Source of the DNA: Neodothiora populina
Lineage: Eukaryota
DNA: 35,771 nucleotides
Direction: 5' to 3'
Assembly: GCF_041146345.1 (NCBI RefSeq)
Contig: NW_027191419.1
Span: forward strand, 868,001 to 903,771
Positions 1,514 through 33,395 of the stretch are shown piece by piece (position 1 is the first letter of the stretch; each line of letters opens with the position of its first letter). The notes under the pieces were generated by a model, which was given only the letters and a program-made list of their open reading frames with translations, ran no database searches and was not told where the DNA came from. A program made the translations under genes and the position numbers.

Positions 1514-2909
1514 CTAATTTCTAGTCCATCTAAAGAAAGCTTGCCCGAACCACTGAGAAGGCTGGTCTATGGCGCGGTGGAAAAGTTCTGCACCCAGAAG
1601 TGTGGCCGGTAAACACACGACGAACACGACCGCCTTTGCTCCTGCGGTAGATATGTTTGTATCGACGAGGACAATGAAAATCTTGAGTCCGGCGGTGTAT
1701 AGAAGAATGGATTGTGAAACAAAGATACCTGCATCTGTTAGAACACGCAGTATGGGATGTAGAGTGGTATGACTTACTTAAAGAGCGGCTCCCCAGATAT
1801 CTCAGCACTTTGAAAGAAAGCAAAGACTGAGCCCTTTCAGATAATTCGAGTATGAGCAAAGTGCCCAGAATCACTAAGAAGTTGTCCAAACGCGGATAAG
1901 GTTGTTTTGAATCGAGGTTACCAAGTCCATCGGCGGGCTGCAAATGCTTTGCTGGGTGTATGGAGAGCTCGGCATTGATGTGACTCGGGAAGGCAGAGAC
2001 CCAGACATACTTGAGCGCAGTACCTATAGCGAAGAAGCCAAGAGCGAGGCTCCAGTAAGGCATCCTGAAGTCTACACTTGGAAGGCGTATGCCCCTTCCC
2101 AAAGCAGATCGCAATGCAGGGTTCAGCGACAGATCTGCAACTAGGAGTCCTACGGCAGAGTACCAGCCCCAAGTGTTGAACCAGAAGGAACCAAGGCCGA
2201 ACCAAATTAGACCCTGCAAATGCCACCCAGGTCGTGTGAATGGCAGAATAACCATGAAAGCAAACACCGTCCAGCTTTGGAAATAAATGACAGACACGAC
2301 CCAGAGTGTTCCCGAAGGCCACATCTGATTTCCCGCTTGAAGGGCAAAGTCTTGGTAAACCCACAGCAGATCGTAGATGGAGTTGAAGCCGGTTATAGCG
2401 TTGCTTGAAGCCCTCGGTGCCTCCAATGTGGAGCTCTTGAGCACGGATGCTGCTTGAGCTATGTAGGACACGTCGATGGCCGAGAAGATGGCTATCGAGC
2501 AAGCCAGAGCAATAGAGATCGGGATACCAACGCGAATGGGTCGCGAGATCAAAGTCCGTGCGAATTTTGGAGTTGACGCATCTTGAAGGAAGTGTATGCA
2601 TACTGTGCGCGCGGACAGGATGATGAAAAACGAGTATATTAAGGACTCATCCCAGAGGAGCGGAGAGAACACCTTTCGAATGATGACTTGATACGTCGGT
2701 TGAGACGCATAGTCATTGGCAGAATTGGAGACCAAAGCTGGTATAAAGGTCTGGAAGAACAGCCAAACGAAGCTCTGGACGGCGAGGATTCCACGGAGTC
2801 CAGTCAAGTAATCTTGTTTTGAAGAGTAGATTGAAGGCCGACGAGGCTGCTTTTGCAGCATCGTCTTGGCCGCAGCAAGCATACCTGGTGAGGGATTGGA
2901 TGGAGACAT
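1514..2909 (-). CDS. Acyltransferase-3 (AT3)-like multi-pass membrane protein, about 448 aa, 2 exons: complement(join(1514..1728,1778..2909))
   Basis: AT3-type motifs DYLTGLRGILA, FFIILSAR, RPIR, GTLWVV and many hydrophobic helices. Removing a 49-bp intron (GTAAGT at 1777, CTAAC branch, CAG at 1729) replaces the ORF-track tail with SIFVSQSILLYTAGLK...AELFHRAIDQPSQWFGQAFFRWTRN* (TAG 1514-1516). Confidence 0.85.
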
Positions 2910-4178
2910 GCTTGGGGAGCTGGCAGAGGACCGTGGAGGAGAGTGAGAAGTTGAAGCAGGCTTCGCGAATTATGCAAGTAGATAGAGTGACTTTCTGTTC
3001 TGACTACCAGTACTCTCAGTCGTACCAATCGCAGAGCGTGGTCTAGATCACAAGCATCTTTCGACATTCATCTCCATAAACGAGCGTCGCATAGGAACAA
3101 AATAAAAGGCAAGCTTCGTTACGCTATAAGACGATCAGATTCTGGTTCTGACGCGACGAAATCTTCATGACGACGGTTACGAAACATTCATTAATCCTGA
3201 ACAAAATACAGGCAGCGGCTCCTTACCCTTTGGAGGAAATGCAAATTTGAAATAAGATCCAAACGGCTTTATCGAACCTGCTGACAACGGCCGCTCGACA
3301 CTTGGTAGATATCCCATGTCATCGAGATCATCTCAATGATGCTGAAATCTGCCGAACCCCCAGGACTAGCAGAGATGTTGGATAGAGCACAGCTGTCAAC
3401 AGCAGAAAAGGGATGTCGGGCCATCTATGCAAGCGTAGTAAGCGCGAATGAATATCAGTAAATTTCTCCGTTATGTATTAGTAGTTCGTGAGAAATCGTT
3501 CAGCGGTTCAACGTTACAGGTAGGCCGTGCTTACAAACGCCGAGTCAAAGCGCCCGCCGAACTCCTTTGGAATCCGGCGCTACTGAACCTTAACCGTAGA
3601 TTCGGGTAATCGTAGAATCTCGGGTAAGCGGCCCGCCAGGTCTGGCAGCGTGAGGAACTACTGTAGACCATAAGGTAAGCATAGGAATTTGGCGAGGAAC
3701 TAGTCGACGACCCAAGTTGTATCCTACCTCCATCATACTTTACCTGTCTTATCATAAACGCACGCCATCAAGAGAGAACGTTCCGTCTATTTGGCGTTGC
3801 TACCACGCTTATCTGATAGCCTCGCTGTGGAGCATCTGAGACATTGTTCGAGGATGCGCTCATGGTCTCCTTGTGACTCTTTACCATTCGACATGTCTAT
3901 GACTCGGGTGACTCTCGTGAGCGGATCCTCCCTAGGTCTCGATTCTTTGGGAACGTTACCCCGGCCACTCAATAAACGCTATCGGGGTGACGAAGACGTT
4001 CGCTCACGGCCCTTGAATGTATATGGTCGCTACTGTCGATGTATATGAGTGAGACATCCATTGCTTCCACCCACATCAGCATGGGAGAGGGTCGGCCATA
4101 ATTGTGCAGGCATCCCTTTTCTCTTCTTTAATGTTCTTGACCCAGTTCCAAGCTTCATTGTTATTGTAAAACTCCAGC
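2910..4178. promoter_or_regulatory. Putative bidirectional promoter region between the two AT3-like genes
   Basis: Head-to-head ATGs at 2909 (-) and 4179 (+), about 1.27 kb apart, with no credible ORF between. Shared regulation is inferred. Confidence 0.5.
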
Positions 4179-7100
4179 ATGATGCGATCGTGCTTGATAT
4201 TCTTGGGAGCAGCAGCCTTGTCGCTGGCCGCCGACGTGCGGGACTGCTCGTGTGGTTTCGAGGACTTTAGGTCCGGACAGGTGTATACAGACGCAACAAT
4301 TGTGTACTTCAACGAAACAATCGGACCCCTTGAAGACTTCTTTTCGGAGGACTTTGCACATAAGAGAGAACATGGCTGGAATACGGTGTTCCGTGCTGGC
4401 GCGATCCCCGATAATGTGGCCATCGCCAATTCCACCCACCCTTCGTCGAATTGGAACGCACAATCACTCAATATGTTCATCGATCCAAGTACACCCAATC
4501 ATCTTGTGAAAGGAGCGTCGATCCAGTCAATGCGTCAAGACATGCATTATGGTTCCATAAGAGCATTCATGCGAGGATCTGATCCCTACTCAAGGCAAGT
4601 ACCCCATATATGTTGCCCATCGAGCAAGTCTAACTGTGTCTTTCAGAGGTTCTGCCATGTCAATGATCATGCAGCATAATCGGTCAAGTGGGTTCGACAT
4701 TGACGTTCTGAACATGGATGAATCAAGTTTAGCTCGTGTAACGACTCTCAAGAACGGAGAATTCCCATCAGCAAAACTGAGTGTCAATTACACCGCGGAT
4801 CCCTGGGGATTCATTGAAGTGCAGGTCGACTGGTCCAAACGTTATCTGAACTATACCGTCGCCCACAACAAATCACGTGTCGTGAGGAGCAAGTCTTCCA
4901 TTCCATCCGAGCCTTTGCCTCTGATCTTCAGGCACTATTCGACTGGCGACTCAAATTTCATGCAAGGTCCTCCTGTTCAACGAGCAGAAGCGAACGTTGC
5001 ATGGGTTCGCGCGTTCTTCAACTCTTCTTTGACGACAGAATCTAATCAGGAAGAGTTTGACGAGCGGTGCAGAACGGAAACGAAATGCAATGTCGATGAT
5101 ACGGAACTCCGAGGAGCGACCCCTTACAGCCCACAAGCATTAGTTCCATGGAAACAGCCCCCCCCGGACCATGGCTGGGGATTAGTTGCAGCCATTATCT
5201 GTGGAAGTGCGACCGCCTTGGGCGTCCTCACTTTAGTCAACGTGTTTTTCCGAAGGAAGCCTTGGAAGACCATGTTCAACGGCGAGAAGCGCTATGAACC
5301 AGCTGTGCTCGATCTTGGTCAACACCTTACGTCGACTTATATCCAGAAGCCCCTCAAGATGTCCGAAACCATAGAAGACCCGCCAGTCCTCCACTCAGAC
5401 GATCCGAAGGCCCCGGTTATCGCCTTATCCAAGGAAGACGAGAGTATGGATCAGATCGGAGATCTGGATGCGGGCGTACGGCGCAGAAGTATTTTCCGAG
5501 GAAGTCGACACAACTCTGTCCCTCATCCTCCAGACCAAAGTTCCCACAGTAGCTTTCCTGCTAAATCACCTAAGACCTCATTTGACGTCCGAGAGACTGG
5601 TCTTTTCCAAAGTAACTTCAGCTTCGGTGGCGAAAAAGCCGTCCCCGAAGTCACCACTTACGACTTCGCATCGTCATCAGCAAATATTCCACGACAGCGG
5701 CAGATGAGTCTGTTTGCCCAAAGTAGAATGTTCTCCACAGCGCAAGATCCGGAGGATGACGACACTCCTATACGCGATGTCAGAGAACGACAAGGCAGTG
5801 TCTTTCAAAGTGTAGTCCATTCCGTCACCAGGCTCGCCTCTATTGCGCCTCCTATTGCGGAGGACCCAGAGGATGTCCCGTCCAATGAGCACTTGGGTGA
5901 AGAATATAACATTGACATCAAGGAATGGAACACACAAGCACCTCAAGATATACCGACCGTGGACCCGCCGTACAACGCCTTCTTTGGCAATCGTCGACCA
6001 ACTATTGCAGAAGCTGTGCCAATTGCGTCCATCAATCTACCTCTTCGCCCTGCCAAATCCAAGGAAAAGCGAATTAATTACCTCGCTGGCCTTGTCGCTT
6101 TTGCGTGTCTCGGTGTAACAGCAACGCATTTCTGCTTGACCTTTGTACCTTATGCAGGTGGATTGGACCAGGGAATGCACTACAAGAGCGAGAACGTGGC
6201 GCGTTGGTTCGCCACACCGTACATCATGGATCCTATCTGGCTCGGCCCCCTCTTTGTAACGTCCTGTCGCTTCCTAGCTGGAGGTTTCTTCAAGAACGGA
6301 GACTTGAAGGAGATTGCACAGAGAATGTTGCTTCGAGCTCCCCGTATGCTTATACCCGCAATAGTAGTCGCCATGTTGGAATACTTTCTCCTCGAGGAAG
6401 GTCTATTGAGCTCGTTGGAATGGCTTCCTTCTATTTCCTGGTCTTCCTGGCCCTACATTGTTGACTACAACAACTTCGCCCAATTCATGAACGACACAAT
6501 CGAATTGGCATACTTGATTCCTAATGCTGCGCCCAGGATAGTGGAGCACTACTGTGTTGGCGTTCTCTGGACTGTACCAGTCCAGCTGCAATTCAGTTAT
6601 ACAGCTCTCTTGGCTGTAGTCATCGTTCGTGACATCAAGACACCTTACAAGCGATTCCTTGTATACGCGATCGCTATCCTTACGAATTGGTATGCCATCA
6701 GTTGGGGTGCTTGCTTCTGGTCGGGTGTGATGCTTGCGGACATGCAGATTACCTTCAAAGTGAGCAAACGGCTGCAGGCTAAGCCCATGGTATGGTATCC
6801 GCTTGCAGTATTCTTATGGATGCTCGCAATCGCTGCTCCTACAATGTCTATGCTGGAGGATCGTCTGAAGATACCAACAATGACTGGCGAGCATTACATC
6901 CATCCGGACCCGCTGACTGGTCATCCTATTGGACAAAGCCCTCGAGCTGGGTATCCCCGCTACTTTGAACCACGTCTTAACACTTTGGTGTTTGCGACTT
7001 GCATTCAATTCCTGCTTGAGACAAGTACTTGGTTCCAAGCTTTCTTCTCGTTGGGTTTCTGGCAGCCTATTTTCCCGTATGCATACACGGTCTATCTGAT

Positions 7101-7566
7101 TCACGGATTCATCTGGTGGACACTGGGCTCATACATGGTGGTACAGCTTGGTATGGCCGGTTTGCCTTACTGGGCCAATCTGCTGGTGACAGCTGTGTGC
7201 TGCTACCTCTGTCTGGCACTGGCGACGATTGCACTTTCGCCAGTGACAGACATGGCGAACGCTGCAGCTTGTCGCAACATTGAAAGATGGGCCACTGCTG
7301 CTCCAGTACCTACCAGAGCGACGTTGTCACCGTTTCCTCATGATCTCTTCTTCGGAAGACGTCCCGAGGATGACAAAGCAGACGGAGATGAGGAGGCTGG
7401 TACCAGACAAGATTCACAGGTTGATGTTAAAGTCCAAGATCAAGAAAATGAAGGAGGGAAGGTCAGAAGACCCACTCATACCACGATCCAGGAGGTGGAT
7501 TCGCTCAGCTCATCGACGAGCAACAGTGCTCGATCATATTCGAGTGGGAATGATGGCAATAGATAG
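4179..7566 (+). CDS. Fusion of signal peptide + GH16-like (ConA-fold) extracellular domain + TM helix + low-complexity linker + AT3-like multi-pass domain, about 1111 aa: join(4179..4594,4647..7566)
   Basis: Hydrophobic leader then DCSCGF; GASIQSMRQDMHYGSIRAFM and IFRHYSTGDSNFMQGPP resemble fungal GH16 proteins; TM GLVAAIICGSATALGVLTLVNVFF; C-terminal RINYLAGLVAFACLGVTATHF, LRAPR, VLWTVPVQLQFSY, AYTVYLIHG. ORFs 4179..4679 and 4636..7566 join in frame through a 52-bp GC-AG intron (4595..4646). Confidence 0.85.
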
Positions 7567-8110: not shown

Positions 8111-8670
8111 ATGTCGAACACAGAACACCACGAGCATGATAGCGTAGACTGGAAACATCAGGGCGTTCGTGTCGTACCGTCGAACTCGTTATCGACAGAC
8201 ACGGCGCAGACTCCTGGTATACATATAACGCTGTCCACCACCAATTCATCAGACAAGGTTACCCTGACCACAATGTAGGCATGAAACGTGCTGCCGCAAT
8301 CAATTTTGCGCGTGTCGGAGCGCAGCATCTATGGGCTGGTACAGTGACCATCGATGCCAACGCCAAGACAGGCGCTCACCATCACGGGCATCTCGAGTCA
8401 GTCATCTACGTGCTCAAAGGCAAGGCTCGTATGCGATGGGGGGCAAAGCTCGAGTTCGTCGCAGAGGCTGGTCCCGGAGACTTCATCTTCGTGCCGCCAT
8501 ATGTCCCCCACCAGGAGATCAATGCATTGGAAGATCAGGATCTGGAGTGCGTCCTCATGAGAAGCGATGGAGAAGCGGTTGCAATCAATCTTCCCGACCT
8601 CGAGCCTGTGGAAAAGCCCGAGCACGTGCCTTGGATTGATCCCACTCACGCCAACTTGGTTGACCTGTAG
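8111..8670 (+). CDS. RmlC-like cupin protein, 165 aa: join(8111..8216,8279..8670)
   Basis: Cupin motifs TGAHHHGHLESVIYVLKG and GDFIFVPPYVPHQE. Upstream exon MSNTEHHEHDSVDWKHQGVRVVPSNSLSTDTAQTPG joins in frame through a 62-bp intron (GT at 8217, CTGAC branch, TAG at 8278). Confidence 0.9.
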
Positions 8671-10845: not shown

Positions 10846-12133
10846 CACGGTGGCTTAAAGGCCGAGATTTCGTCTTCGTCTTAGGTCTCCACCAACACGA
10901 AACACAAGGGTCCAAAGATTTTCCAAATCGTCGAGGCTTGGCGTACGTCAACTTCGCTCTCCTGCTGTGCTTGCCCGATCTTCTGTTCAGCTTCGCGTTA
11001 AGCACTCCGTACTTGTACAGCGCACACAGCCGCTTTGCGTAAACCACGTAGATCTCTCTAAGTTGTATCCAGCATGACACTCGGTATAATCCAGTACTTG
11101 CTGTGCTGGTCCAGTGAGGTAGATCAGAGAGTGGAATCCCGTTCTTCTCCGGATTATCCTCCGCGTCCAACGCGCGTCGCTCCTCGTATCCGTCGATCTT
11201 TCACTGAAAATGATTGCTGGAAAGCTTTTCTGGTGGATGACTGATGTGCAATACGTGTAAGGGGCCTCGACAACCTGGACGTTGATCGTAATGTGATCGC
11301 AATGCGATCTCAATGGAACATCCTTTTGGTCTACGCGAGACACTGTCAGAGAGAGAGCACTCGAGTCACATTTCATCATATGGTAAGCATCGCTTGATAG
11401 TCTACGGTCCCACCGTTCGAGGCAGTATGGCGCATGCATTTTTCGACTTCTACAGTAGTAGCACCGAAGTCGTGTTTACGTCCGTTCAGTCTTCTCACAG
11501 ACATCACTACCTCCTCAGTGACCATGGCCAGTCGACCAAGTAGTAGTAGCCTGGGCGTTTGGTGTCGTCAACGCACAATCTTCGATGCCTTTCTCAGATC
11601 GATTGCGAGGTTCTCGGAGGTCCAATGCGATGAGTTGATGAGTTGAAGTCGCACAATGCTGTGAAGAGTTGAGGTATGTCGTCGATATACTCAGAGCCAC
11701 GATGGGTGAAGTACGGAGTACAAACCACCTGATTCAGCCTTGAAAGCCTTAGTTCTGGTCGGCAGCATTCACGTGGAAAGCCAGGACTCGTAACCTCCGA
11801 CCTCGAAAAGCGGTACCACCATATCAAGAGCTCGTCAGGGTCATCAGATACTTCACCCTGGACTTTCTGATCCACGACACTGAAGTACCTGTGCACCAAG
11901 TTAAGATACGGTAGGGTAACTGTAAGGTAGGGCTAAGGATGGACTACCCCGCCTTGCATCTTTGTACAGTACAATGTACTATTGCGCTTCGTTATTAACC
12001 GCTCTACCGGGTTTTCTCCTGCTGATCCCAACCATGAGTTCGTCTTGACTTCCTTTTCTCTAGGATCCTACGTAAACCCGATACTCCGCGATGCTCGAAC
12101 ACACCGCATTTTGTATTGCTGCGGGCTGCTGCT

Positions 12134-14065
12134 ATGCAAGAACAAGACGAATCTCCTCAGTGTGGTGAGCACTCAAAACGCATCGGCTCAATATCCAGGG
12201 CGGGTGCAGCCTATCCAAGAAAGAGGGCTATCACCGCATGCCAGATCTGCCGTGCCCGCCGCACTAAATGCGATCAAAAGAAACCCTCTTGTTCCTTCTG
12301 CGAAAGAATTGGAGCGGAATGTATCTCCGATCCAGCTGCATTGTCAGCTTTCGATCCTGCCAGTATTGATATCATTGGACGTCTAGAGACCTTGGAGCAC
12401 AAGCTTGATGGCCTCCAAAAACTCGGATCTTCGAACGCATTTGTGAACGAGAGTTACGATACCACGCCGAATACCTACGCTCGATCTGAATCATACTTTG
12501 ATAAAGACCCGAAAAGGTTCATGCCGCAAAATCTTGATACTGTCACGACCTGGCCTATCTTCCGAGAACTTGGTGCCTCGTATTCGTCAAAGTCTCATCT
12601 TGGTGATAGTTCTTCAAACCTGCTATATCCTCCAGGGTCTATCTCGTCGATTACTGACGAGCTTTCTCCTGCTCTCTGCGCCCTTTGGCTGGACAACTTC
12701 TTCCACATCGTCAATGTGAAAAACCCCATACTAAAGGAGCTGGAGACCAGGCGATTGGTACGTCAGGTCTGTATGGAAGGCACAGGATGGGATGCCGAAT
12801 CGTGTCTCGCGCTGCTCGTCTGTGCCAACGGAGCTTTGGCGCAACCATTTCCTCAGCCTTCACTTTCCTCCGACGCCATAAAATCCTTGGCTGCGTATGC
12901 ATTGTTCCATGCAGCGCAGAAACGCTTTGGTCCAGTCATGATGACGGCAGGCGTCATACAGGCACAATGTTCGTACCTCACGGGTGTCTTCCTGATGTCG
13001 TGCCTGCGTCCACTTGATGCATGGCGCATGTTCCTGCAAGCGCTCGCTACTTGCCAAACCTTCAGCTTTCGCAAACCTCGCGAATTTGCGATGACAGTCA
13101 TCAATGGTAGTGTAGCAACGGCAGAGGAGACTGTATATTGGTCTTCGCGGAAATCCGAGCGAGAGCTGAGATGGGAATTAGGCTTACCAGACTTCAACAA
13201 TCCGACATTGTCGCCACCTGAGCTATTCCCGAGTTTGGCGGAAGGCTGCGAAGGGGAGAACCTTCGGGGCTGGTACTTTTACTTGTCCGAGATTTCTCTC
13301 TGGCGCCTCGAGACCGACGCGAAGATCTCGATCAGTAATATTCTACATAAGGACCAGAGTCGGATCCTTGATAGACTAGCCGAGCAGGGGCTAAACAGCC
13401 TCGAGCAAGTCGTGGCGTGGCAAGACTCGCTTGCGCCTGCGGTCAGACTCCTCGAAGATGGGCAGCCGATCGAGATTGACGATGTCCTGCGCTTCATCCT
13501 CCGGGGGCGAACAACATACGTCCATGAGCTAGTAACATGGCCTTCCCTTTACGCTGTCATAAACGAGGGCGAACAGTCACCTCTTGTTCGCAGCTGGGCT
13601 GCCAAGGGTTGTGCTTTCCATCTTGAGAGACTTGCGATCAATCGTCCGGGCTTCTATTACAGACATCATGGTACATGGCTAATGCTAAGGTCCTCAGCGC
13701 GTAGTGCCTGTATACTGTTGCTTGTAGCTCAAACTCACTCAACTCTCGACTTACTCCCAGCACGCTGGCAGGAAGCTGTAGTCGCCACTATTGATATGCT
13801 CGTGTTCTGGCGAAGGACTGTCCACGAAGCTGATGAAACAGTGACACTTTTACAACGTCTGTTGCACAACGTCTGTTGGCTAGCGCGCAAAAGATGCAAG
13901 GATGATACCATATGTAACGATAGCAAACGCATACTTGTAGTGAAATTGCGCCGCTGCGTGCGAGTCGAGACTTTACATCGTATTTGCATTACACTCACTA
14001 TACAATACAGCAGAATCGCATGCGATAGTCCCTTTAGAACACAAATGGCATTGGGGTTCAGATAG
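12134..14065 (+). CDS. Zn(II)2Cys6 binuclear-cluster transcription factor; C-terminus probably altered by a frameshift
   Basis: First ATG at 12134; CQICRARRTKCDQKKPSCSFCERIGAEC cluster preceded by RKRAITA; downstream FFHIVNVKNPIL, EETVYWS, WYFYLSEISLWRL and YRHHGTW typical of fungal regulators. No intron required. Confidence 0.9.
   Translation: MQEQDESPQCGEHSKRIGSISRAGAAYPRKRAITACQICRARRTKCDQKKPSCSFCERIGAECISDPAALSAFDPASIDIIGRLETLEHKLDGLQKLGSSNAFVNESYDTTPNTYARSESYFDKDPKRFMPQNLDTVTTWPIFRELGASYSSKSHLGDSSSNLLYPPGSISSITDELSPALCALWLDNFFHIVNVKNPILKELETRRLVRQVCMEGTGWDAESCLALLVCANGALAQPFPQPSLSSDAIKSLAAYALFHAAQKRFGPVMMTAGVIQAQCSYLTGVFLMSCLRPLDAWRMFLQALATCQTFSFRKPREFAMTVINGSVATAEETVYWSSRKSERELRWELGLPDFNNPTLSPPELFPSLAEGCEGENLRGWYFYLSEISLWRLETDAKISISNILHKDQSRILDRLAEQGLNSLEQVVAWQDSLAPAVRLLEDGQPIEIDDVLRFILRGRTTYVHELVTWPSLYAVINEGEQSPLVRSWAAKGCAFHLERLAINRPGFYYRHHGTWLMLRSSARSACILLLVAQTHSTLDLLPARWQEAVVATIDMLVFWRRTVHEADETVTLLQRLLHNVCWLARKRCKDDTICNDSKRILVVKLRRCVRVETLHRICITLTIQYSRIACDSPFRTQMALGFR
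13852..13878 (+). repeat. 14-bp-period tandem duplication ACAACGTCTGTTG-C-ACAACGTCTGTTG inside the TF coding region
   Basis: Identical 13-mers at 13852-13864 and 13866-13878. Confidence 0.9.
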
Positions 14066-14912: not shown

Positions 14913-17156
14913 TTAGAAGAAATGCGAGCAACTCAATGCAGGCGAACTACCAGCAGACGAACTGACCTCAATGAGGACTTCTTTGCCTGGCAGATGGAAT
15001 CGACCGCCTGCCCAGCGCTGAAGAGGCACTGTTGAAGCTTGGATCGCGATGGTCTCTGACTGACCGGCATCCAAATCTACTGGTCTGAAGCCCAACAAAT
15101 TTCGGAGGGGGAAAGTCTGCAAAGCCCGGTAGACCATATACTTGGGATACATATCTTCCGTGTCGGGTGCCTGTGTTGGTAACGCTAACATATACCATGA
15201 ATGAGTCTGAACCGCTTGGAGGCTGAATTGTGTCAACTTGAATGCTGTTGATGGAAAATGTGGTGTACGACAATCCGAAGCCGAGGGGGAAAGCAGCTTC
15301 GACACCGAGTCTGTCGAGTAGAGCTTGCCCGAACCAACGGTCATAGACAATCTCTGTTGCTTCCTTGTCGAGAAACGGTAGGTGGCTCTCATCTTTTGGT
15401 ATAGAGAACGGAAGCCTGCCAGAAGCGTCGATACGACGAGGAGAACGTCGGCTAAAGCATGACCACCCTCGCAGCCAGAATACTAACTCAGCAGTAACGC
15501 AGAAGTCTTGTCCTTCCAATCTTCCATGATGACCGCGCCAGCAGTAATTACCGAAACAATAGTACTTGGATTGGCGGCGGTTACACTGTCGATAATTGCC
15601 ACGTCTTCGGGTCGAAGCCTGAGCGATTCACGGTCTCCGCCGCCTCCCACTTCGAGTCCGGTGTCCGCTGCATCCTCACTGATATTGCATTGAACAATGG
15701 AGAGAGTCTTCTTGTCTTCGTTCGTCTCCGCAAGAGGGAGAAGTTCAGGGAGACAAGGGTCAAGTTTCAGAGATGGCACCACATATTCGCCCTCATCTGT
15801 TGCATCGTAACCAACAATGCAGATTACCAGATCAGCAGAGCTAGCGAGAGACCCAGCATTGGCCGCGGAGTCCGTGTCATCAAGCACAACTTCTGCATTC
15901 GGTAGCGCTGCCTTGATACCTGCATATGGCGTCACTACGTGCGGCGAGAACACCTGTGATGAACCTTTGTCTCCAGTGTTTGACCTGTTAGCCAGTCGGC
16001 CAACGACCACGACCCTCGACAGTTTAGTAACATCTAAGGGCAGCAATCCTCTTCCATTGACAGGTGTGTTCTTCAAGAGGACCACGGACCGAGCAGCGGC
16101 CTCTCTTGCCAAGGACCTGTGGGAATGGCTGAAGACGACCGTGGAATCAGGTTGGCTTGCTTCGGTGGAGATAGACGACGACAATTCCTTGAGAAGAATG
16201 TTATAACAGGCTCGATTGACATCTGACCATTGAAGATCGCCAGAACGCAATGCTTCAGTCAACGCCAAGCTACGCTGCTGAGTGAAAGGTGCCTCAATGT
16301 CCAGGCCGTTCTTCAAAGACTGCACGGAATTGCGAAGGCCAAAGATGAAATCTGACAGAACGAATCCATCAAATTTGTACTCGTTACGCAGAATTCCGGT
16401 AAGTAGTTGTTTACTTTGTCCAGCCCATTCGTTATTCACGGAATTGTAGGAGGACATGACAGATGCCACCCCTCCATCGATGACTCTCTTGAAATGAGGA
16501 AGATAAACTTCTCGAAGCACATCTTCCTCTATAGAAACATTGACTCTGAACCGAGCATTCTCCATCGAGTTAAGTGCAAAGTGCTTGACACAAGCCATGA
16601 CATGGGTTTGCACACCTTGGGTGAGTGCAAGTCCGAACTCTCCAAGTAGCAGCGGATTTTCGCTGTATGTTTCTTGTATACGGCCCCAAGCTGGGTGACG
16701 TGGCAGGTTGATGCACACACCCGCAAAGTAATTAGCACCTAGCGCCTTTGATTCCAATCCGATAGCATCTCCAATGCGACGCTCCAGTTCGACATCCCAT
16801 GTGGCGCCTCGGCTCATTGATACAGGAAAGGCTGTGGACGAGCCCATGACAACTCCTCTCGGACCATCTGTGAAGCGAATACCCGGGATCCCCAATCGCG
16901 GGATCTCGCCCATAATGAAAGGCTCCCTGTTGTAGCGATCGCACAGGATTTTGTTCAGTCCCGTGTAGAATTTTTCATCACCATCAAGAAGCGAGAGACG
17001 TTCGACCTTCGTCATCTCAGCGATAAGAGAGTGCACGGCTTGATCGATAGGCCGTCCGTGTTTGACTTGAAGTATCGCATCTTGGAAAGTGAAGGGCTCT
17101 TCGAGATCATCCGCACTCGAATCTTTGGGAACGTGGGCTGGGATGACACTGAACAT
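14913..17156 (-). pseudogene. GH3 beta-glucosidase/beta-xylosidase-like gene disrupted by one nonsense codon and two frameshifts
   Basis: GH3 motifs IPRLGIPGIRFTDGPRG, WGRIQETYSE, CVKHF, FDGFVLSD, SVVLLKN. TAG at 15483-15485 replaces Trp in S*YSGCEGGHALADVLL; 1-nt loss near 15437 before RIDASGRLPFSIP and FPLGFGLSYTTF; 1-nt gain in the homopolymer at 15107-15111 before RNLLGFRPVDLDAGQSETI (FN3-like tail). Confidence 0.88.
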
Positions 17157-17795
17157 CGTTACTTGCTTGGCCGAGCACGTTCTGAAGAATTTGGTAACAA
17201 ATAACGGAGGGCCGAACAGGGAATGATGGAGAAAGGATGACACGGAAAACTATGAGAGAGATAGCTGGGATATCAAGGTTTCAAGTAATCCATAACTCTC
17301 TTAGCCATTGATACATCGCCTGTCTATGAGCATGTGACACCGGGGAAAATCAGCTTTCATATTTTATATTTTACGAGACCCGTCAAATTGTTGGTTCAGC
17401 GTCTTGGTAGGAGACGACTCAAAACGCGGACCATGTAGATATTGGGAATTGGGACTAGAAAAATCCCGATTGTTGTATTTGGGGTGCGCCATACCATCTT
17501 GGCCTGTGATAGAGCACTCATGCTTGCTACATACGTTTTGCTATCTGTATTTCGCCATGTGTACGATTACTCTGAATACATAAAATGAAATGAATTCTAA
17601 TTATTGGAGAACAGTAATTTGATTGAACATTGAACTGATATGTAACATGGTATATCGCGATATAATCTACATATTCTTTCGCTATTGCATGCTCGTCGAG
17701 CTAATTCCAGATGATTACCCCCTTTCTTGTTCATTAGACTTCGTCATTCTATAACGATCACATCATGATCCGCCACAATGGCTTAAAATCCAAAT

Positions 17796-19268
17796 TTATG
17801 CCCATCTGCCACCACGTCTTGTGACCTTGCCGGTAGAGGCAGCAGGGTAGATAAGAGTGCGCGCGGAAGGATCACAGACTACTCCAGCCGGGTAACTGTG
17901 TGCAGGGTTGCAGAGATAGGCGCTCGAGGATGGAGCAGAAGCGGCAACAGGCTTAGAGGTGGCGGCGCAATAAGCCGGTGCAGAGGTGATGGTGACGAAC
18001 TGACCAGGGTTGTCGTTGCAAGCACTGTGCGCAGGGTTGCAGCCGATAAAGTAGGAAGTAGGGTAGGTGCTGGGCGTGACAGTGACAAAAGTGCCAGGAC
18101 CGTTGGGGCAGTTGGTATGGGCAGGGTTGCAGCCATCAAACAAAGAGGTTACGCATGCACTTGGAGTTGGCACAACGGCGACGGGAGCCGAGGTGGCGTT
18201 GAAGTAAGTGCTTGGGCAGCTTCCAGGGTGAGCTGGATTACAGCCACCGAGGATGGAGCTGGTGACAGGAACAACAGGAGCCACGGCGCCCACACCCACG
18301 CTCACAGTCTCAGTGTGGGTCACAGTGATGTAGCTGATGTAAACCGGAGGGCAAGTTCCAGTGGGCTGTGCTACGACAACAGTGTTTCCGGCGACCGAGG
18401 ACTGGCCCTGGTCAGTGACGGTTGCCTGGACAGGCTTCGTGATGGTCTGAGTGACTGGGCAAGTCAAAGTTGTGGCAGAGGTGACAGTGTATGTGTTCTT
18501 GTCTACGGTGATGGTCGTGGGTGCTGGGCAGTAAGTCGTGAAAACAGTCACTCTCTCGGAAGTAGTGTACGATTCTGCGGTAGGGATAGATGGATTGACA
18601 GGCTTGGTGATTGTCTGAGTTACAGGAACAGTCAATGTAGTTGCCTCTGTTACGACGATAGTCTTCTTGTCAACAGTGACAGTGGTAGGTGCAGGGCAGT
18701 AGATGGTCACAGTCTTCACAACCTGGCTGGTTGTATATATAGTGTTGATAGTAGGGACCGAAGTCTTGGTCAATGTGCATGGGCAGTTGGTGATGGTCAA
18801 GGTAGTGGCCTCGGTGACGGTGTAAGTTTTTCCTCCGACAGAGAGGACCGTGGGCTCAGGGCAGTACGTTGTGAAGGAGCTGACGATCTCAGTCACAGTC
18901 ACGGGGATATCAACGGGCGCTGCAGGTGTAATAGTGTTGGTGCCGTTCCCGGCAAATGGGTTTCGACCCAGACAGCCAGCGTACTCTGCAGCGCATGCGG
19001 CCATATTGGCACTGACACCGTTCGGTCGGCTGCTACGGCAGGCGTTGTACTGAGAATAGCATTGTGACTCGGTCGTGTTGAAGTTGTCATAGATGACCGG
19101 TAAAGTGGCCGGCTGGCTGGTGACACTAGTCGATGTGGCACTACTGATGACAACAGATGAACCGGTCGAAAGTAAAGATGGCTTGACTGTAGTTGCGTTG
19201 AACCCCTGTGGAGCAGCTGAACCGAGGGCAGCTCCGAGAGCGAGGGCAATGATGATGGAGGCAACCAT
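17796..19268 (-). CDS. Secreted Thr/Val/Cys-rich repeat protein (cell-wall/surface-like), 490 aa
   Basis: Signal peptide MVASIIIALALGAALGSA; Cys module QCYSQYNACR...ANMAACAAEYAGCLGRNPF; three T(T/I)YCPxPT...TxATTLT repeats (CCG-6/Sed1-like motif); four CNPAH repeats; basic C-terminus without a GPI-type hydrophobic tail. Confidence 0.88.
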   Translation of the reverse strand: MVASIIIALALGAALGSAAPQGFNATTVKPSLLSTGSSVVISSATSTSVTSQPATLPVIYDNFNTTESQCYSQYNACRSSRPNGVSANMAACAAEYAGCLGRNPFAGNGTNTITPAAPVDIPVTVTEIVSSFTTYCPEPTVLSVGGKTYTVTEATTLTITNCPCTLTKTSVPTINTIYTTSQVVKTVTIYCPAPTTVTVDKKTIVVTEATTLTVPVTQTITKPVNPSIPTAESYTTSERVTVFTTYCPAPTTITVDKNTYTVTSATTLTCPVTQTITKPVQATVTDQGQSSVAGNTVVVAQPTGTCPPVYISYITVTHTETVSVGVGAVAPVVPVTSSILGGCNPAHPGSCPSTYFNATSAPVAVVPTPSACVTSLFDGCNPAHTNCPNGPGTFVTVTPSTYPTSYFIGCNPAHSACNDNPGQFVTITSAPAYCAATSKPVAASAPSSSAYLCNPAHSYPAGVVCDPSARTLIYPAASTGKVTRRGGRWA

Positions 19269-23124: not shown

Positions 23125-25286
23125 ATGCATTCTGGAGGAGGTAACAGCGGTCATGACGCTTTGTCAAAGAGACGGGCGCAATTCGCAGGGCCGTCAGGTA
23201 TCAAGGGCATTCTACAGAATCCAAAGATCTTCGCCTTGGCTGTCTTTGCCTCGCTTGGTGGATTTGTATATGGCTGTAAGTAAAGAGGGCTTCTTTCTTG
23301 TTGTTATGTGTACTGATAAGAGCATTCAGACAACCAAGGTTTGACATCTGCATCTCGGTTTGCATGATGGCACTAACTCTGTATCTAGGAATGTTTGGAC
23401 AAGTCCTAAACATGCCATCTTTCGCAAACACAGTCCACCCAGAATCAATCACGAACACTACTTTGAGAGGATTTCTTACCGCGTACGAATATTGCAACCT
23501 TGACTGTGATCTCATGACTGACAGACATAGCATTCTCGAGCTCGGAGCGTGGGTTGGAGTTCTGATCAATGGTTATACTGCGGACAAGTTCGGCCGTAAA
23601 CTGGCTACCGTCATTGGTGTATTCGTCTTCTGCGTTGGTGTTATCGTTCAAGCATGTGCCAAGAATGCCGACTATATCCTCGGGGGACGCTTCGTCACTG
23701 GTCTCGGTGTCGGTATCTTGTCTATGATCGTTCCACTGTAGGTTTTGCCACTCTTACTCGATGAGATTCATGTTGACCATGTTCATAGTTACAACGCCGA
23801 ACTCGCCCCAGCAGAGATCAGAGGCTCGCTGGTATCGCTACAACAACTTGCCATTTGTACCGGAATCATGCTCAGCTATTGGATAGGTCAGTAAGCTCCC
23901 TCGTATGAAATACGTGGCTGTACTCATGGAGCTATCACAGGTTACGGAACCAACTTCATTGGAGGCACTGGTGAAACCCAGTCTAACGCCGCATGGTTGA
24001 TCCCAATTTGCATCCAACTCTTGCCAGCAATCATTCTCGGCATCGGCATCATGTTCATGCCGCAGAGGTGAGCTATGGCGCATGCTGTGGAACGCAGGCA
24101 ACTCTGCTGACATACGTGATAGTCCCCGATGGCTTGTTTCGAATGGTCAAGAAGAGGGCGCTCTCTCAGTTCTTGCTCATCTTCGAAGATCACCAGCTAC
24201 TAGCGAAGCTGTGCAACTAGAATTCCTTGAGATCAAAGCGCAGCATATGTTCGAGGTTGAAAGATCGATTGCCAAGTTCCCTAACTACCAGTCTGGCAGC
24301 TTCATGGACAACTCCAAGTTGGGATTCTACGACTATGCAAGCTTGTTGACTAACCAGTCTCTACGCAAGAGGGTCATGGTTGCAGTGTTGGTCATGGCTT
24401 TCCAGCAATGTATGTTCCGATGCTTCTGAGGATGATGTAGTTACTAATTATCGCAGGGTCCGGAATCAATGCCATTCTCTACTACGCAGCTTTCATCTTC
24501 AAGGACCTGGGACTGACAGGAAACACGACTTCGTTGCTTGCTTCTGGTGTTGGCGGAATCCTCCTCATGTTGGCAACCATCCCTGCAGTCCTTTATATCG
24601 ATCAACTTGGCCGTAAGCCGGTGCTCATCGCTGGCGCCATCGGCATGGGCATCTCACACATCATCGTTGCTGCGCTCTACGGGAGTTTTGGCAATAACTG
24701 GCAATCTCACGCCGCCGCTGGCTGGGTCGCCGTGGTGTTTGTATGGATCTACGAAATCAACTTCGGTTATTCATGGGGCGTGAGTGGAGATCCGCGCTGC
24801 AGATATCGTCCGGAAGAAGGTGCTGACTCGTTGTATAGCCTGGTGCATGGGTCCTTGTCGCAGAGGTTTTCCCGTTGGGAGTTCGTGCTAAGGGTATCTC
24901 TATTGGAGCTTCTAGTAAGTCAATTATATAGATACTCACGCTCGTCCCTCGAGACTGATTTCGATACAGGCAACTGGTTGAACAACTTTGCAATTGGACA
25001 AGCGACTCCAGACATGGTCAAGCACATGGGTTACGGAACCTTCATCTTTTTCGGCCTTATGTGCTTCTTAGGTGCAGCCTTCATCTGGTTTTTCGTCCCC
25101 GAGACCAAGAATCTTACCCTGGAGGAGATGGACGAGGTCTTCGGTGACGAAGCTGGAAACGCCACTGAAGATCGTGTAAGACTCGATAGGATCTATGGCG
25201 AGCTCGGACTTATCGAGACGAGTCCATCTCTGCACGAATATACCAAAGAGCCAAAGGTCAATGGGGAATTTGTTGAGCACAAGTAG
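23125..25286 (+). CDS. MFS sugar porter, possibly a pentose/xylose transporter, 10 exons: join(23125..23275,23330..23338,23389..23482,23531..23737,23789..23886,23941..24067,24123..24409,24457..24779,24839..24914,24970..25286)
   Basis: Nine GT-AG introns restore LGGFVYGYNQGMFGQVL, ADKFGRK, LGGRFVTGLGVG, LYNAELAPAEIRGSLVSLQQL, PQSPRWL, QQWSGINAILYYA, WGPGAWVLVAEVFPLGVRAKG, SNWLNNF and FVPETKNLTLEEMD. Frame appears intact. Confidence 0.93.
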
Positions 25287-30477: not shown

Positions 30478-31938
30478 TTACACGTAATCTGTGGTAGTAG
30501 GGTTCATTGCGTAGCGATTCCATATCTCGTCAGTCATCATGCGTGACCATGCGTCGTCTGAGAGATCGACGAGCATTTCCACAGTTCCTTCCGGAGCATC
30601 GGGCGGACAAGGCAAAATGATCTGGAAGCCGGAGCAGACGCCATGCGCTGGGAAGCGTACAGCTTTGAGATGATGACCAAAGGCAGGACCCCACTCGATG
30701 TTGTAGTAATCGAACTCTCTCCAATTACTCTGAAGTACATTGGCGCCTGGCATATCAAGGAAAGCAATTCCAGCAAGACGGTTAACATCGTCCATGTTCT
30801 CAATGTAATGTGCCAATTCATCGTGATAAGACTTATCGCATTTGGCCACAGCTTGTCGCACTGAAACAGCTAGATCGGCGAGTGATGCTGTGTCAGGGGA
30901 GAGCACATGCGAGAGAGGCAACGCGATCGCAGCGTACCCCAGGATGTTACCCAGTGTGTGAGGGTGGATTGTTTCATGGGCACGGCGCCGCGCATCCAAA
31001 GCAACCTGGGCAACTGAGTGCTTATCAGCAGCGATTGTCGAGTGATCAGACTGTTCAGCCCGTTGGACAGATCTCCAGAGTAGAGCTGTAAGAACATCGT
31101 TGGTAGTGACGAATTCAGGCAATTCGGCGGCGGGGATTTTGTCCTTCAGCAATCGTACGTTGCGAGGTGCACACTCCTCTTTAAGAGCCCTAATAGCCTC
31201 TGGTGTGAAACGGAACACATGTGCGTGGTGTTGCGCCTTTGTCAAACCGTCTGGTAGGCCTTCTGGAGTAAAAGGCAGATGGACAAACTCCAGATGCTCT
31301 TGAGCAAAGTTGGCGCAAGCGCGGTCTTTATTGCTGCGGAGTAGCTTTGCACGATCCGTGATGGGAATTTCGGCAGCCTGATGGATAGAAAGACCTTGGG
31401 CACGGCGTACATCCTCAGCAAACAGTTCGATGAATTTCCACATAGTCGTGCCATCGGCGAAGGCATGGAAGCATAGGTGGTTGAGGAGTAGACCGCCCTT
31501 GATGAGGTTGGCCTGCATCATGTTTGTCGGAAGCCTGTCGACACCGAACGTTGGCCACTCTCCATTGCGCCCACGAAGGCACAACTTCTCAGTGTCCATG
31601 CTAGCATTTGGGAAGTTCTGTGCTTTCAGCTGCGCGAACGAAGGCAAACCTGGGTCACTGCGGTGGTCTTTCACCACAAAATCTACGATCTCACCCTCGC
31701 GGTAAGGTTGAAGCTTGAGCATGCCTGTTGGCTTCACATCCGGGCCTACAGGCACTGCCTCAGTGCCGACCATGGGTGTTCTTTCCTTGAAACTGGCCCA
31801 CGCAGATTTGAGTATCGACGTTATGTGGCTAGCATCATATTCCGAATCGAGTTCGAGACAAAGCATATCGCGGATCCATCCTTTTGGTCCAACCTGTTCT
31901 AATGCCAGGAGGACTGGTGCTTGTTCGATTCCACCCAT
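30478..31938 (-). CDS. CoA-dependent O-acyltransferase, Transferase family (Tri101/BAHD-like), about 486 aa
   Basis: HxxxD motif FHAFADG after QANLIKGGLLL; TNDVLTALLWRSV; LDARRR...LGN; DFGWG-equivalent NIEWGPAFG. First in-frame ATG at 31938; uninterrupted ORF. Confidence 0.9.
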   Translation of the reverse strand: MGGIEQAPVLLALEQVGPKGWIRDMLCLELDSEYDASHITSILKSAWASFKERTPMVGTEAVPVGPDVKPTGMLKLQPYREGEIVDFVVKDHRSDPGLPSFAQLKAQNFPNASMDTEKLCLRGRNGEWPTFGVDRLPTNMMQANLIKGGLLLNHLCFHAFADGTTMWKFIELFAEDVRRAQGLSIHQAAEIPITDRAKLLRSNKDRACANFAQEHLEFVHLPFTPEGLPDGLTKAQHHAHVFRFTPEAIRALKEECAPRNVRLLKDKIPAAELPEFVTTNDVLTALLWRSVQRAEQSDHSTIAADKHSVAQVALDARRRAHETIHPHTLGNILGYAAIALPLSHVLSPDTASLADLAVSVRQAVAKCDKSYHDELAHYIENMDDVNRLAGIAFLDMPGANVLQSNWREFDYYNIEWGPAFGHHLKAVRFPAHGVCSGFQIILPCPPDAPEGTVEMLVDLSDDAWSRMMTDEIWNRYAMNPTTTDYV

Positions 31939-33395
31939 AGTCGAAACCAACTACCTTGATAAAGAACAAGAGACTAGCTCGAAATTTATCCAAAAAAAAT
32001 AAAGGGAAGAAGGTCACTGAGAGTCGTTGATAGTTGTGGTATTGCACTGCTAAATACTTGACACAATCTCTCGCATTTGATCTTGAGACATGGATCTTCA
32101 AACTCAACTTGATGATCGAGCATTGGACGGGCTGCTACTCTTCTGATAGCGTTAATTGTTTGCGAGATTAGAAAGTGGGACCTCTCATTGGTAAGTCTCA
32201 GACAGCAATATATAATGGTCGACATATGGGGAATCTGCTAATGCTCATCAACAATAGCATGCTTTTCAAGTGTCAGATGGCGGTAGAGAGATAGTGAGGA
32301 GCAGATCCGTGCCAAGTGCAGGACTACGTACGATTAATATATATCTACCCTTGGACGTGCCCTTAATGTATCACGCCTTTCCGTACAGAGAGCGGTACAT
32401 AGCGATCGGTAGCACGATGGCACGGACCGGCCCCACTACAACTTTTCGAAAGTCTAATTCTCGGCTCCTCTTGCGTCGATCGACCCAACCTGAACGAAGT
32501 TCATATGATCCCCTATTATCGTTTAGGTGTCAACTGCGCAACGTGGCATACTGTGGTTGCTGCTGAGACTAGCTCAATGGCAATGTTCCTAGCCTTTCAA
32601 ACTTAAGTTGTGACCAACACCTGTTAAAGCAGGTGCTTAGCATGTGGGAGGGGCAGAAACTATCCCAACAGCATAAGAGCGCTGATTGGTTATACAGATG
32701 TATGCATTAATGTAACAAGATTTGTTCATCTGCCTTAAAAGTAAGGAACGCGTCGGTCGGAAGGATGTCGTATCAGTTCCAAAGTGTCGAATGAAAGACA
32801 TCCTTTCCAGTGTTCCACACCAAGTATCAGTGGGAAGTGGAGTAGTTCGACAGAGCGCGGACTGTAAGATCATCGTAGTCTACTAAACCTTGTACTCCAG
32901 AAGAAGTCTCTATCGATATTTTGTTAAGTTGAGTGCTTACACAGGCCTTGACCTCTCCTCTCGGCTATAGTCTGTCACTGGAGTGTTCTTGATGGTCGCG
33001 ATGGAATCTACATTAAACAAAACGACCCCTGATTCCTGCAGAGTCCTCTCGCAAAAATTCTGCTTGCTGGTGATCTCATGGAAGGCTCATAAGGCTGGAC
33101 ACTGCTCCACAGAGTCATGTGAATTTGTATCTCTTTGGTCAATATATATTCAGCTACTGGGCCACATTAGTACCAGAAATTTGGTGTTCCGAGGCTGTGC
33201 TAGATATGAACCTGATTTGACCAAACATCCCCTGATACCAGTGAACTTGGCGAGACCGGAGCTGAAAGCCACAAACGACCTTATACTCGGGAGGCGCTGA
33301 CATACTCGATACGTCCGCATCGATTCAATTGTTGTTGCAATCCGAAGACGCCGTTTCAGTCTGCTCTAGGTACAACACACTTCGGTGGACGTAGA

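Follow-up and report, generated by a model that had tools for sequence, protein, structure and literature searches.

A conserved fungal gene pair encoding a GH16-like/AT3 fusion and an AT3-like paralogue without the helix-1 histidine, a probable glycan O-acylation module

Enzymes of the AT3 family and of the wider transmembrane acyltransferase (TmAT) fold carry acyl groups through membranes and attach them to glycans, and mechanistic knowledge of them comes almost entirely from bacteria and from human HGSNAT. Canonical AT3 proteins are described as carrying both an arginine and a histidine in helix 1 (the R/K-x10-H motif); the histidine (H25 of OafA) is listed as one of only four residues that are invariant across 31 characterised AT3 enzymes, and both the H25A and the R14A exchange are reported to abolish OafA activity, the latter leaving 0.07 % (PMC7448272). 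The helix-1 arginine is reported to bind the 3'-phosphate of coenzyme A (CoA) together with three other basic residues, and the histidine to lie near the thioester on the outer face, the two residues sharing one helix that lines the pore of a single protomer (PMC9833829). HGSNAT is described as a dimer whose protomers each enclose a separate acetyl-CoA site, with lipids lying between these two sites. The residue pairs N286/H297 of HGSNAT and I141/K155 of active GWT1, an enzyme said to act as a monomer, are reported to occupy structurally equivalent positions (PMC11502805). For fungi, those parts of a TmAT review that bear on AT3 genes place them only in natural-product clusters (PMC12423673). 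Here we analyse two adjacent, divergently transcribed genes, gene 1 and gene 2, in a stretch of 35,771 nucleotides from Neodothiora populina (RefSeq assembly GCF_041146345.1, contig NW_027191419.1, positions 868,001 to 903,771; hereafter the window), which encode AT3-like proteins with reciprocal residues at the helix-1 pair.

Our analysis suggests that these genes belong to a fungal cluster for glycan synthesis and O-acylation, in which gene 2 would be the probable transferase and gene 1 an auxiliary paralogue devoid of the helix-1 histidine, and we regard this interpretation as reasonably probable. The evidence that carries it comes from the residue states of the two families, the history of those states, the linkage of the genes to each other and to a glycan synthase gene, and the comparison of predicted structures with solved TmAT enzymes.

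Helix-1 motif, gene models and predicted fold

The initial annotation of the window had described two AT3 domains that show a complementary loss of the R-x10-H motif. At the level of the residues this description was borne out. The helix-1 motif of gene 1, GLRGILAVQSFVWL (2760..2801, minus strand), keeps the arginine and has leucine eleven codons further on, where the histidine would stand (GGA CTC CGT GGA ... CTG; Arg39 = CGT, 2795-2793; Leu50 = CTG, 2762-2760). That of gene 2, GLVAFACLGVTATH (6088..6129, plus strand), has valine in place of the arginine (Val621 = GTC, 6094-6096) and keeps the histidine (His632 = CAT, 6127-6129), and neither protein carries the whole motif. Both retain the RxxR motif, as RPIR in gene 1 (2532..2543, minus strand; R123 2543-2541, R126 2534-2532) and as RAPR in gene 2 (R701 6334-6336, R704 6343-6345), where it forms part of R697-x3-R701-x2-R704 (6322..6345, plus strand). 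A check of the coordinates also placed the late YLxH motif in gene 2 only (VYLIH, 7090..7104, plus strand; Y954, L955, H957), with IFVSQ as its counterpart in gene 1 (1726-1712, minus strand).

Gene 1 lies on the minus strand and encodes 448 residues, and its translation after splicing equals the deposited hypothetical protein AAFC00_000251 of N. populina (P0001 in our alignments). Exon 1 (1778..2909) covers residues 1-377 and ends one base into codon 378. It is followed by a GT-AG intron of 49 nucleotides (1729..1777; GTAAGT...CTAAC...CAG) and by exon 2 (1514..1728), which encodes residues 378-448 and the stop codon and starts with S-IFVSQ, so that the segment aligned to VYLIH of gene 2 stands just past the intron. 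A spacer of 1.27 kilobases (kb; 2910..4181), presumably a shared promoter region, separates the two divergent start codons. Gene 2, on the plus strand, encodes 1110 residues identical to the deposited hypothetical protein AAFC00_000252 (P0071). Its exon 1 (4182..4594) holds a signal-peptide-like N-terminus and the start of a GH16-like domain, and exon 2 (4647..7566) runs to the stop codon. The intron between them (52 nucleotides, 4595..4646; GCAAGT...CTAAC...CAG) is of the GC-AG type, a splice that the deposited protein demands. In order, the signal-peptide-like segment is followed by the GH16-like ectodomain (residues 94-252, 4461..4989, with the intron inside), a single membrane anchor predicted from a hydrophobic stretch (residues 314-339, 5173..5250), a linker of about 270 residues that is of low complexity and poorly conserved (5251-6069), and the AT3/TmAT domain (residues 613-1030, 6070..7323).

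Since BLASTP between the two proteins gave no significant match (best E 0.15), the register of the motifs needed a profile test. An hhalign comparison of 64 gene-1 relatives with the AT3 part of the gene-2 family aligned 414 columns with a probability of 99.85 % (E 8.1e-30) and paired R39 with V621, L50 with H632, RPIR with RAPR and IFVSQ with VYLIH; the shift of register that had been raised as a possible objection was thus not seen. The bacterial reference Sf6 Oac (record AF547987) aligned too weakly to serve as an anchor (probability 5.3 % with the fusions, 0.2 % with the gene-1 family), and the register relative to AT3 therefore rests on basidiomycete fusions that carry the literal motif and pass the Pfam threshold. 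Measured by Pfam, to speak of two AT3 domains was generous: gene 1 had no Pfam match of any kind at E<=1, one of three other gene-1 relatives reached 10.6 bits against PF01757, and gene 2 scored 24.6-25 bits, under the gathering cut-off of 31 bits. The profile and fold evidence nevertheless upholds the AT3 nature of both. In view of the Pfam scores below cut-off and the incomplete motif, we file gene 2 as a divergent AT3 relative, judged by its sequence, and gene 1, judged by sequence and model, as an AT3-like paralogue of TmAT fold and no more.

AlphaFold2 models built from the family alignments had a mean predicted local distance difference test score (pLDDT) of 88.8 and a predicted template modelling score (pTM) of 0.87 for gene 1, and of 83.8 and 0.82 for the AT3 part of gene 2, the end of the linker falling below pLDDT 50. 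When both models were compared with 48,161 chains using VIA-align, HGSNAT ranked first, as 8jkv_A (gene 1: Z 15.3, root-mean-square deviation 4.6, 292 residues aligned; gene 2: Z 14.5, 4.9, 290 residues) and as 8tu9_B (Z 14.1 and 13.2), followed by GWT1 (8xik_A; Z 10.7 and 9.9), and all later rows had a Z of about 6 or less. Helical bundles often reach Z ~13 by chance; here the top three rows were all TmAT enzymes and nearly the whole model was covered. Foldseek against the Protein Data Bank found nothing at E<=1e-3, with HGSNAT at ranks 41 and 46 only. In the ESM Atlas, the gene 1 model matched a fungal PF01757 cluster with a template modelling (TM) score of 0.75 and bacterial AT3 and AT3-SGNH clusters with TM scores of 0.62 and 0.59. 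As predicted by these models, both proteins share the ten-helix TmAT core fold.

Residue states across the families, order of the changes and gene linkage

We then aligned 70 relatives of gene 1 and 120 of the 174 relatives of gene 2 together; counts for the gene-2 family in this paragraph refer to those 120 proteins. This alignment of orthologues, proposed at the outset as a check, revealed that R-without-H and H-without-R are each fixed within their family. All 69 gene-1 relatives that could be read (one has a gap) have arginine at the first position, and the +11 position holds leucine (34), isoleucine (21), valine (13) or alanine (1) and never histidine (0/69). In the gene-2 family the first position is valine in 118 proteins, threonine in one and isoleucine in one, and the +11 position is histidine in 118, tyrosine in one and asparagine in one. 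The two RxxR arginines are present in 70/70 and 66/70 gene-1 relatives and in 120/120 gene-2 relatives each. Likewise, the tyrosine, leucine and histidine of YLxH are each found in 120/120 gene-2 relatives and are unconserved in the gene-1 family; the gene-1 alignment is gappy in its C-terminal third and many gene models are incomplete, so statements about IFVSQ are weaker than the others. In addition, the gene-1 alignment was used to scan metagenome contigs, which gave 28 loci whose neighbours were determined by tblastn. There, all 26 readable gene-1 relatives combine R/K with L/I/V, and nine of the 11 readable gene-2 relatives combine Val with His, the other two having Thr with His (locus L027) and Val with Tyr (L007). 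With states fixed in this way within each family, the reciprocal pattern lies far beyond chance.

To describe the wider family, 60 of the 70 gene-1 relatives were used as a profile in an exhaustive HMMER search of 1.84 billion representatives (left out were eight close relatives of included rows and two short entries, P0053, with a gap at the motif, and P0069, of 270 residues). The search returned 487 proteins at E<=1e-3, of which 150 were examined. Among the matches listed, long fusions were the first beyond the gene-1-like family, from E 4.8e-27, and 84 rows span helix 1. The 69 gene-1-like stand-alone rows have R or K at the first position in 68 cases (a fragment has Y) and no histidine at the second (0/69), while the gene-2-like long fusions in the same alignment are Val/His in four cases and Leu/Asn in one. 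The complete motif occurs in nine long proteins (839-1243 residues), for example YLDGLRGFACFLVSFHHF; P0326, a fragment of 451 residues, was scored R/F through an insert column and by eye also has a histidine at +11. All nine long proteins with the complete motif lie above the Pfam AT3 cut-off (31.5-70.5 bits), two of them with weak GH16 matches, and gene 2 aligned to seven basidiomycete-type fusions of this kind at 26-33 % identity. Exact look-up assigned R+H fusions to Violaceomyces, Acaromyces, Meira and Thecaphora, all Ustilaginomycotina. The taxonomic range of the gene-1 family, as covered by 30 exact look-ups, includes three basidiomycete proteins without the histidine, from Ustilago and Tilletia, together with representatives from Piedraia, Acrodontium, Plenodomus, Pseudovirgaria, Clarireedia and Aureobasidium. 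A further profile search with 33 diverse gene-1-like proteins added only Tilletia walkeri among the matches listed. Six gene-1-like proteins of the basidiomycete clade (P0228, from Ustilago, P0235, P0237, P0239, P0243 and P0255) are 570-690 residues long and have an N-terminal extension of 140-350 residues; the five of these that were scanned (P0228, P0235, P0237, P0239 and P0255) gave no Pfam match.

A tree of 83 AT3 parts (IQ-TREE in 'quick' mode, midpoint root), chosen for full coverage and at most ~62 % mutual identity with the named pairs added by hand, separated the gene-1-like proteins from the fusions with a support of 100 in the Shimodaira-Hasegawa-like approximate likelihood ratio test (SH-aLRT). 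The Val/His clade likewise received 100, its sister relationship to the R/H protein P0319 98, the group of the other six R/H fusions, including the named basidiomycetes, 96, and the basidiomycete gene-1-like clade 98. The rows comprise 49 with a basic residue and no histidine, 25 with a non-basic residue and histidine, seven with a basic residue and histidine, and two with neither. On this tree the arginine position changed once, inside the ascomycete fusion clade, and the histidine three times, namely between the two families, to tyrosine in P0120 and to asparagine in P0327.

Because canonical AT3 proteins carry both residues, the simplest history starts from an R+H ancestor. This ancestor would have been duplicated ahead of the ascomycete-basidiomycete split, the stand-alone copy would then have lost its histidine early, and the exchange of arginine for valine would have followed much later in the ascomycete fusion lineage. 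Under a midpoint root, and with few basidiomycetes named, the sequences place the two changes in this relative order. By the same comparison the basidiomycete pair consists of an R-only and an R+H protein and is hence non-complementary. The notion of a complementary loss as one coupled event does not stand up to these data: basidiomycete gene-1-like proteins are already without the histidine and the fusions there keep R-x10-H, and the tree has the Arg-to-Val change arising once, later, within the fusion clade. As part of the interpretation given above, and with the same fair measure of confidence, we thus read the R-only/H-only pattern as two independent substitutions of different age, not as a split active site.

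The two genes also travel together. A gene-2 relative adjoins the gene-1 relative in 15 of the 28 metagenome loci (11 downstream on the same strand, four upstream on the other strand); in the remaining 13 the flank is too short on the relevant side, and there were no clear negatives. A GT2 glycosyltransferase relative lies 1.3-2.4 kb 5' of the gene-1 relative in 17/28 loci, the other 11 having shorter upstream sequence, and in some upstream-type loci it sits between the gene-1 and gene-2 relatives. The pair is thus usually found within a three-gene cluster. The GT2 gene of locus L025 (7277-8176, plus strand) matches PF13632 with 74 bits and BcsA chains with E ~1e-8 and has a QRLRW motif; its best NCBIfam model is PgaC/IcaA, at 70 bits, far under the equivalog cut-off. 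GT2 relatives were also found in loci L001-L005, L007, L009, L011, L014, L016, L019, L020, L023, L024, L027 and L028. Among named genomes, consecutive locus tags join the pair in Neodothiora, Elasticomyces, Extremus, Hortaea, Neophaeotheca and Acrodontium, a single tag intervenes in Endocarpon, and both relatives have equal listed contig sizes in Polychaeton, Teratosphaeria, Piedraia and for a second Acrodontium pair. The two Acrodontium pairs, the second on one contig, occupy matching subclades of both families, which argues that the pair was duplicated as a unit and that both copies are still adjacent. Gene 1 and gene 2, often together with GT2, are a conserved fungal gene module.

The surroundings of the pair in the window are not part of this module, as relatives of the six open reading frames (ORFs) that flank it, up to position 19268, were found in 0/28 loci. 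Those compared include a cupin (8281-8670), a Zn2Cys6 transcription factor (12116-14065) and a GH3 beta-glucosidase (15483-17243). Beyond the compared ORFs, the window also encodes a sugar transporter (24534-25286) and a BAHD/TRI-like acyltransferase (30478-31950).

Proposed roles and competing explanations

Conserved polar columns were mapped between the two families through the hhalign alignment. In common with the fusions, the gene-1 family keeps a basic cluster (R78, R101, R123, R126 and R226), D259, R340, E355 and the loop motif E314-x3-H318-P. Of the residues conserved in the fusions it has lost H632, H649, E653 (now Gln), Y717, K806/R807, Y811, Y954 and H957, and gene 1 is without three of the four fusion-conserved histidines, that is the helix-1 histidine, the one just after helix 1 and the late one. 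The family is under strong constraint, with 23 invariant and 37 nearly invariant columns among 60 sequences; R39, R78, R123, R340 and D342 are invariant, and R101, R126, E314, H318 and E355 nearly so. Taken with the published roles of the site residues, the kept basic cluster and the lost histidine make gene 1 look able to bind an acyl-CoA-like ligand, with the outer-face chemistry lost.

The E-x3-H-P motif lies in a predicted outer loop of both proteins (gene 1 E314...H318, 1956-1970; gene 2 E886...H890, 6889-6903) and is conserved in the gene-1 family and in the ascomycete and basidiomycete fusions. It is a candidate for a functional site common to all of them and distinct from the classical AT3 motifs.

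In the fusions, residue 697 is the sole position that is newly conserved as basic in the Val/His clade, being K or R in 49/53 members versus 0/7 R/H fusions. R697 (6322-6324) stands four residues, or one helical turn, ahead of RxxR and is a candidate replacement, within the gene 2 chain, for the lost helix-1 arginine. With respect to the ectodomain, residues 94-252 match PF00722 with 25 bits, above the cut-off of 22 bits, while a sequence search of the GH16 part against solved structures gave chance-level rows only and no GH16 alignment. The catalytic motif of GH16 enzymes is E-x-D-x-x-E. At the presumed motif gene 2 reads D-I-D-V-L-N (residues 155-160, 4696-4713), and in the gene-2 family the first position is Glu in 49/104 and the last Asn in 101/105 filled rows, the register being set by eye in both cases. 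The catalytic Glu positions thus look degenerate, and the sequence suggests that the ectodomain may bind a glycan instead of cutting it.

We therefore propose no more than the following division of labour. Gene 1 and gene 2 are ancient paralogues of AT3/TmAT fold that travel together, in most related loci with a processive GT2 glycan synthase. Gene 2, with an extracytoplasmic, probably glycan-binding GH16-like domain and a ten-helix AT3 domain that has the helix-1 histidine, RxxR and YLxH, is most likely an active O-acyltransferase that depends on acyl-CoA and modifies a wall or secreted glycan; the absent helix-1 arginine is probably compensated from within the chain, for which K/R697 is the candidate. 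Gene 1, in which the cytoplasmic half of the pore has retained its arginine-rich character (R/K39, R101, R123, R126 and R226), is most likely no longer catalytic at the canonical site and would probably act as an auxiliary or re-purposed subunit in the same pathway. A more specific version, in which the paralogue without the histidine would be a non-catalytic but obligate subunit that forms an HGSNAT-like dimer with the fusion, is docked on GT2 and helps to acylate the nascent glycan, strikes us as unlikely.

Several observations weigh against this proposal. GWT1 is a working TmAT without the canonical histidine, so that gene 1 might still be an enzyme; conversely, since R14A kills OafA, Val621 could point to a gene 2 that, too, has no classical AT3 activity, and the compensation by K/R697 is a candidate drawn from a correlation only. 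The histidine does not seem to be absolutely required in the fusion clade, as a partnered fusion lineage (Extremus antarcticus P0120; locus L007:8082-9392) has tyrosine in its place and the fusions P0132 and P0327 have asparagine, P0327 also with leucine for valine. The order of events hangs on the midpoint root, the quick tree and seven named basidiomycetes. On the side of linkage, near-duplicates among the metagenome loci leave about 12 distinct ones with gene 2 and about 13 with GT2, and adjacency was assessed in those loci and in the genomes listed with them by locus tag or contig. In Coniosporium tulheliwenetii the gene-1 relative and two gene-2 relatives are on contigs of different size and are possibly unlinked. 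Finally, tblastn detected no GT2 in the window, which extends for only 1.5 kb on the left side of the pair; in tblastx those 1.5 kb gave nothing at E<=1e-5 against the 28 loci and chance-level values (E 0.27-0.96) against the GT2 regions.

Among the alternatives, it is possible, if rather doubtful, that each protein is an active acyltransferase in its own right within a shared pathway, gene 1 working for example through E314/H318 of the outer loop and either adding another acyl group to the glycan that gene 2 modifies or acting at another position of it. The precedent of GWT1 speaks for this, as do the constraint on the gene-1 family with its 23 invariant and 37 nearly invariant columns, the basic residue at position 39 in 68/69 representatives, which suggests that CoA is still bound, and the loop motif common to both families. 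However, a comparison of HGSNAT with GWT1 indicates that the first position of the helix-1 pair varies among active enzymes whereas the second carries a functional group (His or Lys), and the aligned gene-1 relatives have aliphatic residues only at that position; in the wider family it is filled by interchangeable, largely aliphatic residues (L, I, V, T, A, M, S, F), none of which offers a functional group comparable to the GWT1 lysine. In addition, three of the four fusion histidines and several conserved Tyr and Lys/Arg residues are gone in gene 1, and the histidine at issue is the one whose exchange kills OafA and which is invariant in the 31 characterised enzymes. It is less probable still that the genes are neighbours merely by tandem duplication and that gene 1 now has an unrelated role such as transport or sensing. 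Their paralogy and the many loci with both genes in tandem on one strand would fit, and other eukaryotic AT3 proteins (NRF-6/NDG-4 and Drop-dead) are described, in the review sections devoted to them, as poorly understood and perhaps not engaged in acyl transfer (PMC12423673). Yet the duplication appears older than the ascomycete-basidiomycete split, and the linkage has outlasted changes of orientation and the insertion of GT2, while the six flanking genes are kept in none of the 28 loci and the two Acrodontium pairs are each still adjacent. These points also bear on an earlier suggestion that both proteins were repurposed as transporter, sensor or scaffold: functionally linked paralogues with a probably re-purposed gene 1 agree with the loss of three of four histidines and with an adjacency that is kept across fungal classes and outlasts the flanks, whereas gene 2 is more likely a transferase.

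The initial annotation had also raised an obligate heteromer in which gene 1 gives the arginine and gene 2 the histidine of a single R-x10-H function. The fixed reciprocal states, the conserved proximity of the genes and the dimeric nature of HGSNAT, the nearest solved fold, are what one would expect of such a complex. The losses, however, were uncoupled in time, since the fusions of basidiomycetes have both residues and the gene-1-like proteins from basidiomycetes are already His-less. Arginine and histidine lie on one helix that lines the pore of one protomer, and the sites of the HGSNAT dimer are separate and partitioned by lipids, so that two chains could hardly supply the two residues; by analogy with these enzymes an active site split across gene 1 and gene 2 appears unlikely. 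Furthermore, the Extremus-type pair is without the histidine in both partners, and a gain of a basic residue at position 697 in the same chain is the simpler remedy. Taken together, we consider this heteromer highly improbable, and prefer a reading in which gene 2 is the probable transferase and gene 1 its auxiliary paralogue, whether or not the two proteins touch.

Significance and comparison with known systems

In the literature searched, neither a GH16-AT3 fusion nor its paralogue partner was found described, and the text of a 2026 preprint on Tft1, a mixed-linkage glucan synthase, contains neither 'GH16' nor 'acyltransferase'. Three features therefore appear to be undescribed: an N-terminal GH16-like domain fused to an AT3 core, a conserved His-less paralogue beside the fusion that we hold to predate the ascomycete-basidiomycete split, and a processive GT2 synthase gene that in most relatives belongs to the cluster. 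If the module does acylate a wall or secreted beta-glycan, it would represent an unstudied modification of the fungal cell surface, in carriers that include black yeasts, lichen-forming fungi and plant-associated Dothideomycetes. The natural R-only, H-only, R+H and neither states of helix 1 offer a ready mutational series for the function of R-x10-H. Should the His-less subunit pair with the fusion and dock on GT2, the complex would be the first heteromeric TmAT with a pseudoenzyme subunit, and also the first machinery described from fungi in which glycan acylation is coupled to a synthase.

Compared with bacterial AT3 proteins (PF01757: OafA and OafB of Salmonella, Oac of Shigella phage Sf6, OatA of Staphylococcus), the fungal pair is predicted to have the same ten-helix fold around a pore, and it has RxxR in the corresponding place, at the cytoplasmic end of helix 3, as well as either the helix-1 histidine (gene 2) or the arginine (gene 1). 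Gene 2 resembles them further in its fused extracytoplasmic, carbohydrate-directed domain and in the probably cytoplasmic N-terminus of its AT3 part, and bacterial AT3 genes, too, are often placed beside a polysaccharide synthase. Unlike the bacterial proteins, neither fungal protein has the whole R/K-x10-H, gene 1 is Pfam-negative and gene 2 below cut-off, and the two form a paralogue pair; bacterial AT3 fusions carry a C-terminal SGNH domain, whereas in gene 2 an N-terminal GH16-like domain is joined through an extra anchor and the linker of about 270 residues. NRF-6/NDG-4 of Caenorhabditis elegans and Drop-dead of Drosophila are likewise eukaryotic AT3 proteins with an N-terminal extracytoplasmic domain and a biochemistry that is unclear, but that domain is an NRF domain and not GH16-like, and the sections of the review on these proteins mention no paired His-less paralogue (PMC12423673).

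Human HGSNAT (8jkv, 8tu9) is the solved structure closest to both models (Z 15.3 and 14.5) and arranges its parts in the same order as gene 2, with an N-terminal luminal beta-sandwich, one extra helix and the acyltransferase core. It differs in sequence (~6-12 % identity), in being a homodimer with two complete sites, and in having N286/H297 at the places of the AT3 arginine and histidine. GWT1 and human PIG-W (8xik) share the TmAT fold, and GWT1, active without the canonical histidine, sets a precedent for non-canonical catalysis; it has a lysine where gene 1 is aliphatic, is a monomer and acts on the lipid acceptor glucosaminyl-phosphatidylinositol (GlcN-PI). In bacterial exopolysaccharide operons a GT2 synthase occurs together with membrane acyltransferases, as in the acetylation of cellulose or alginate. 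The fungal cluster differs from these operons in bearing introns, in being of AT3 type and not of MBOAT type and, for the pair studied here, in having no GT2 gene in the window; like them, it combines a BcsA/PgaC-like GT2 gene with neighbouring membrane acyltransferase genes, as seen in 17 of the 28 related loci.

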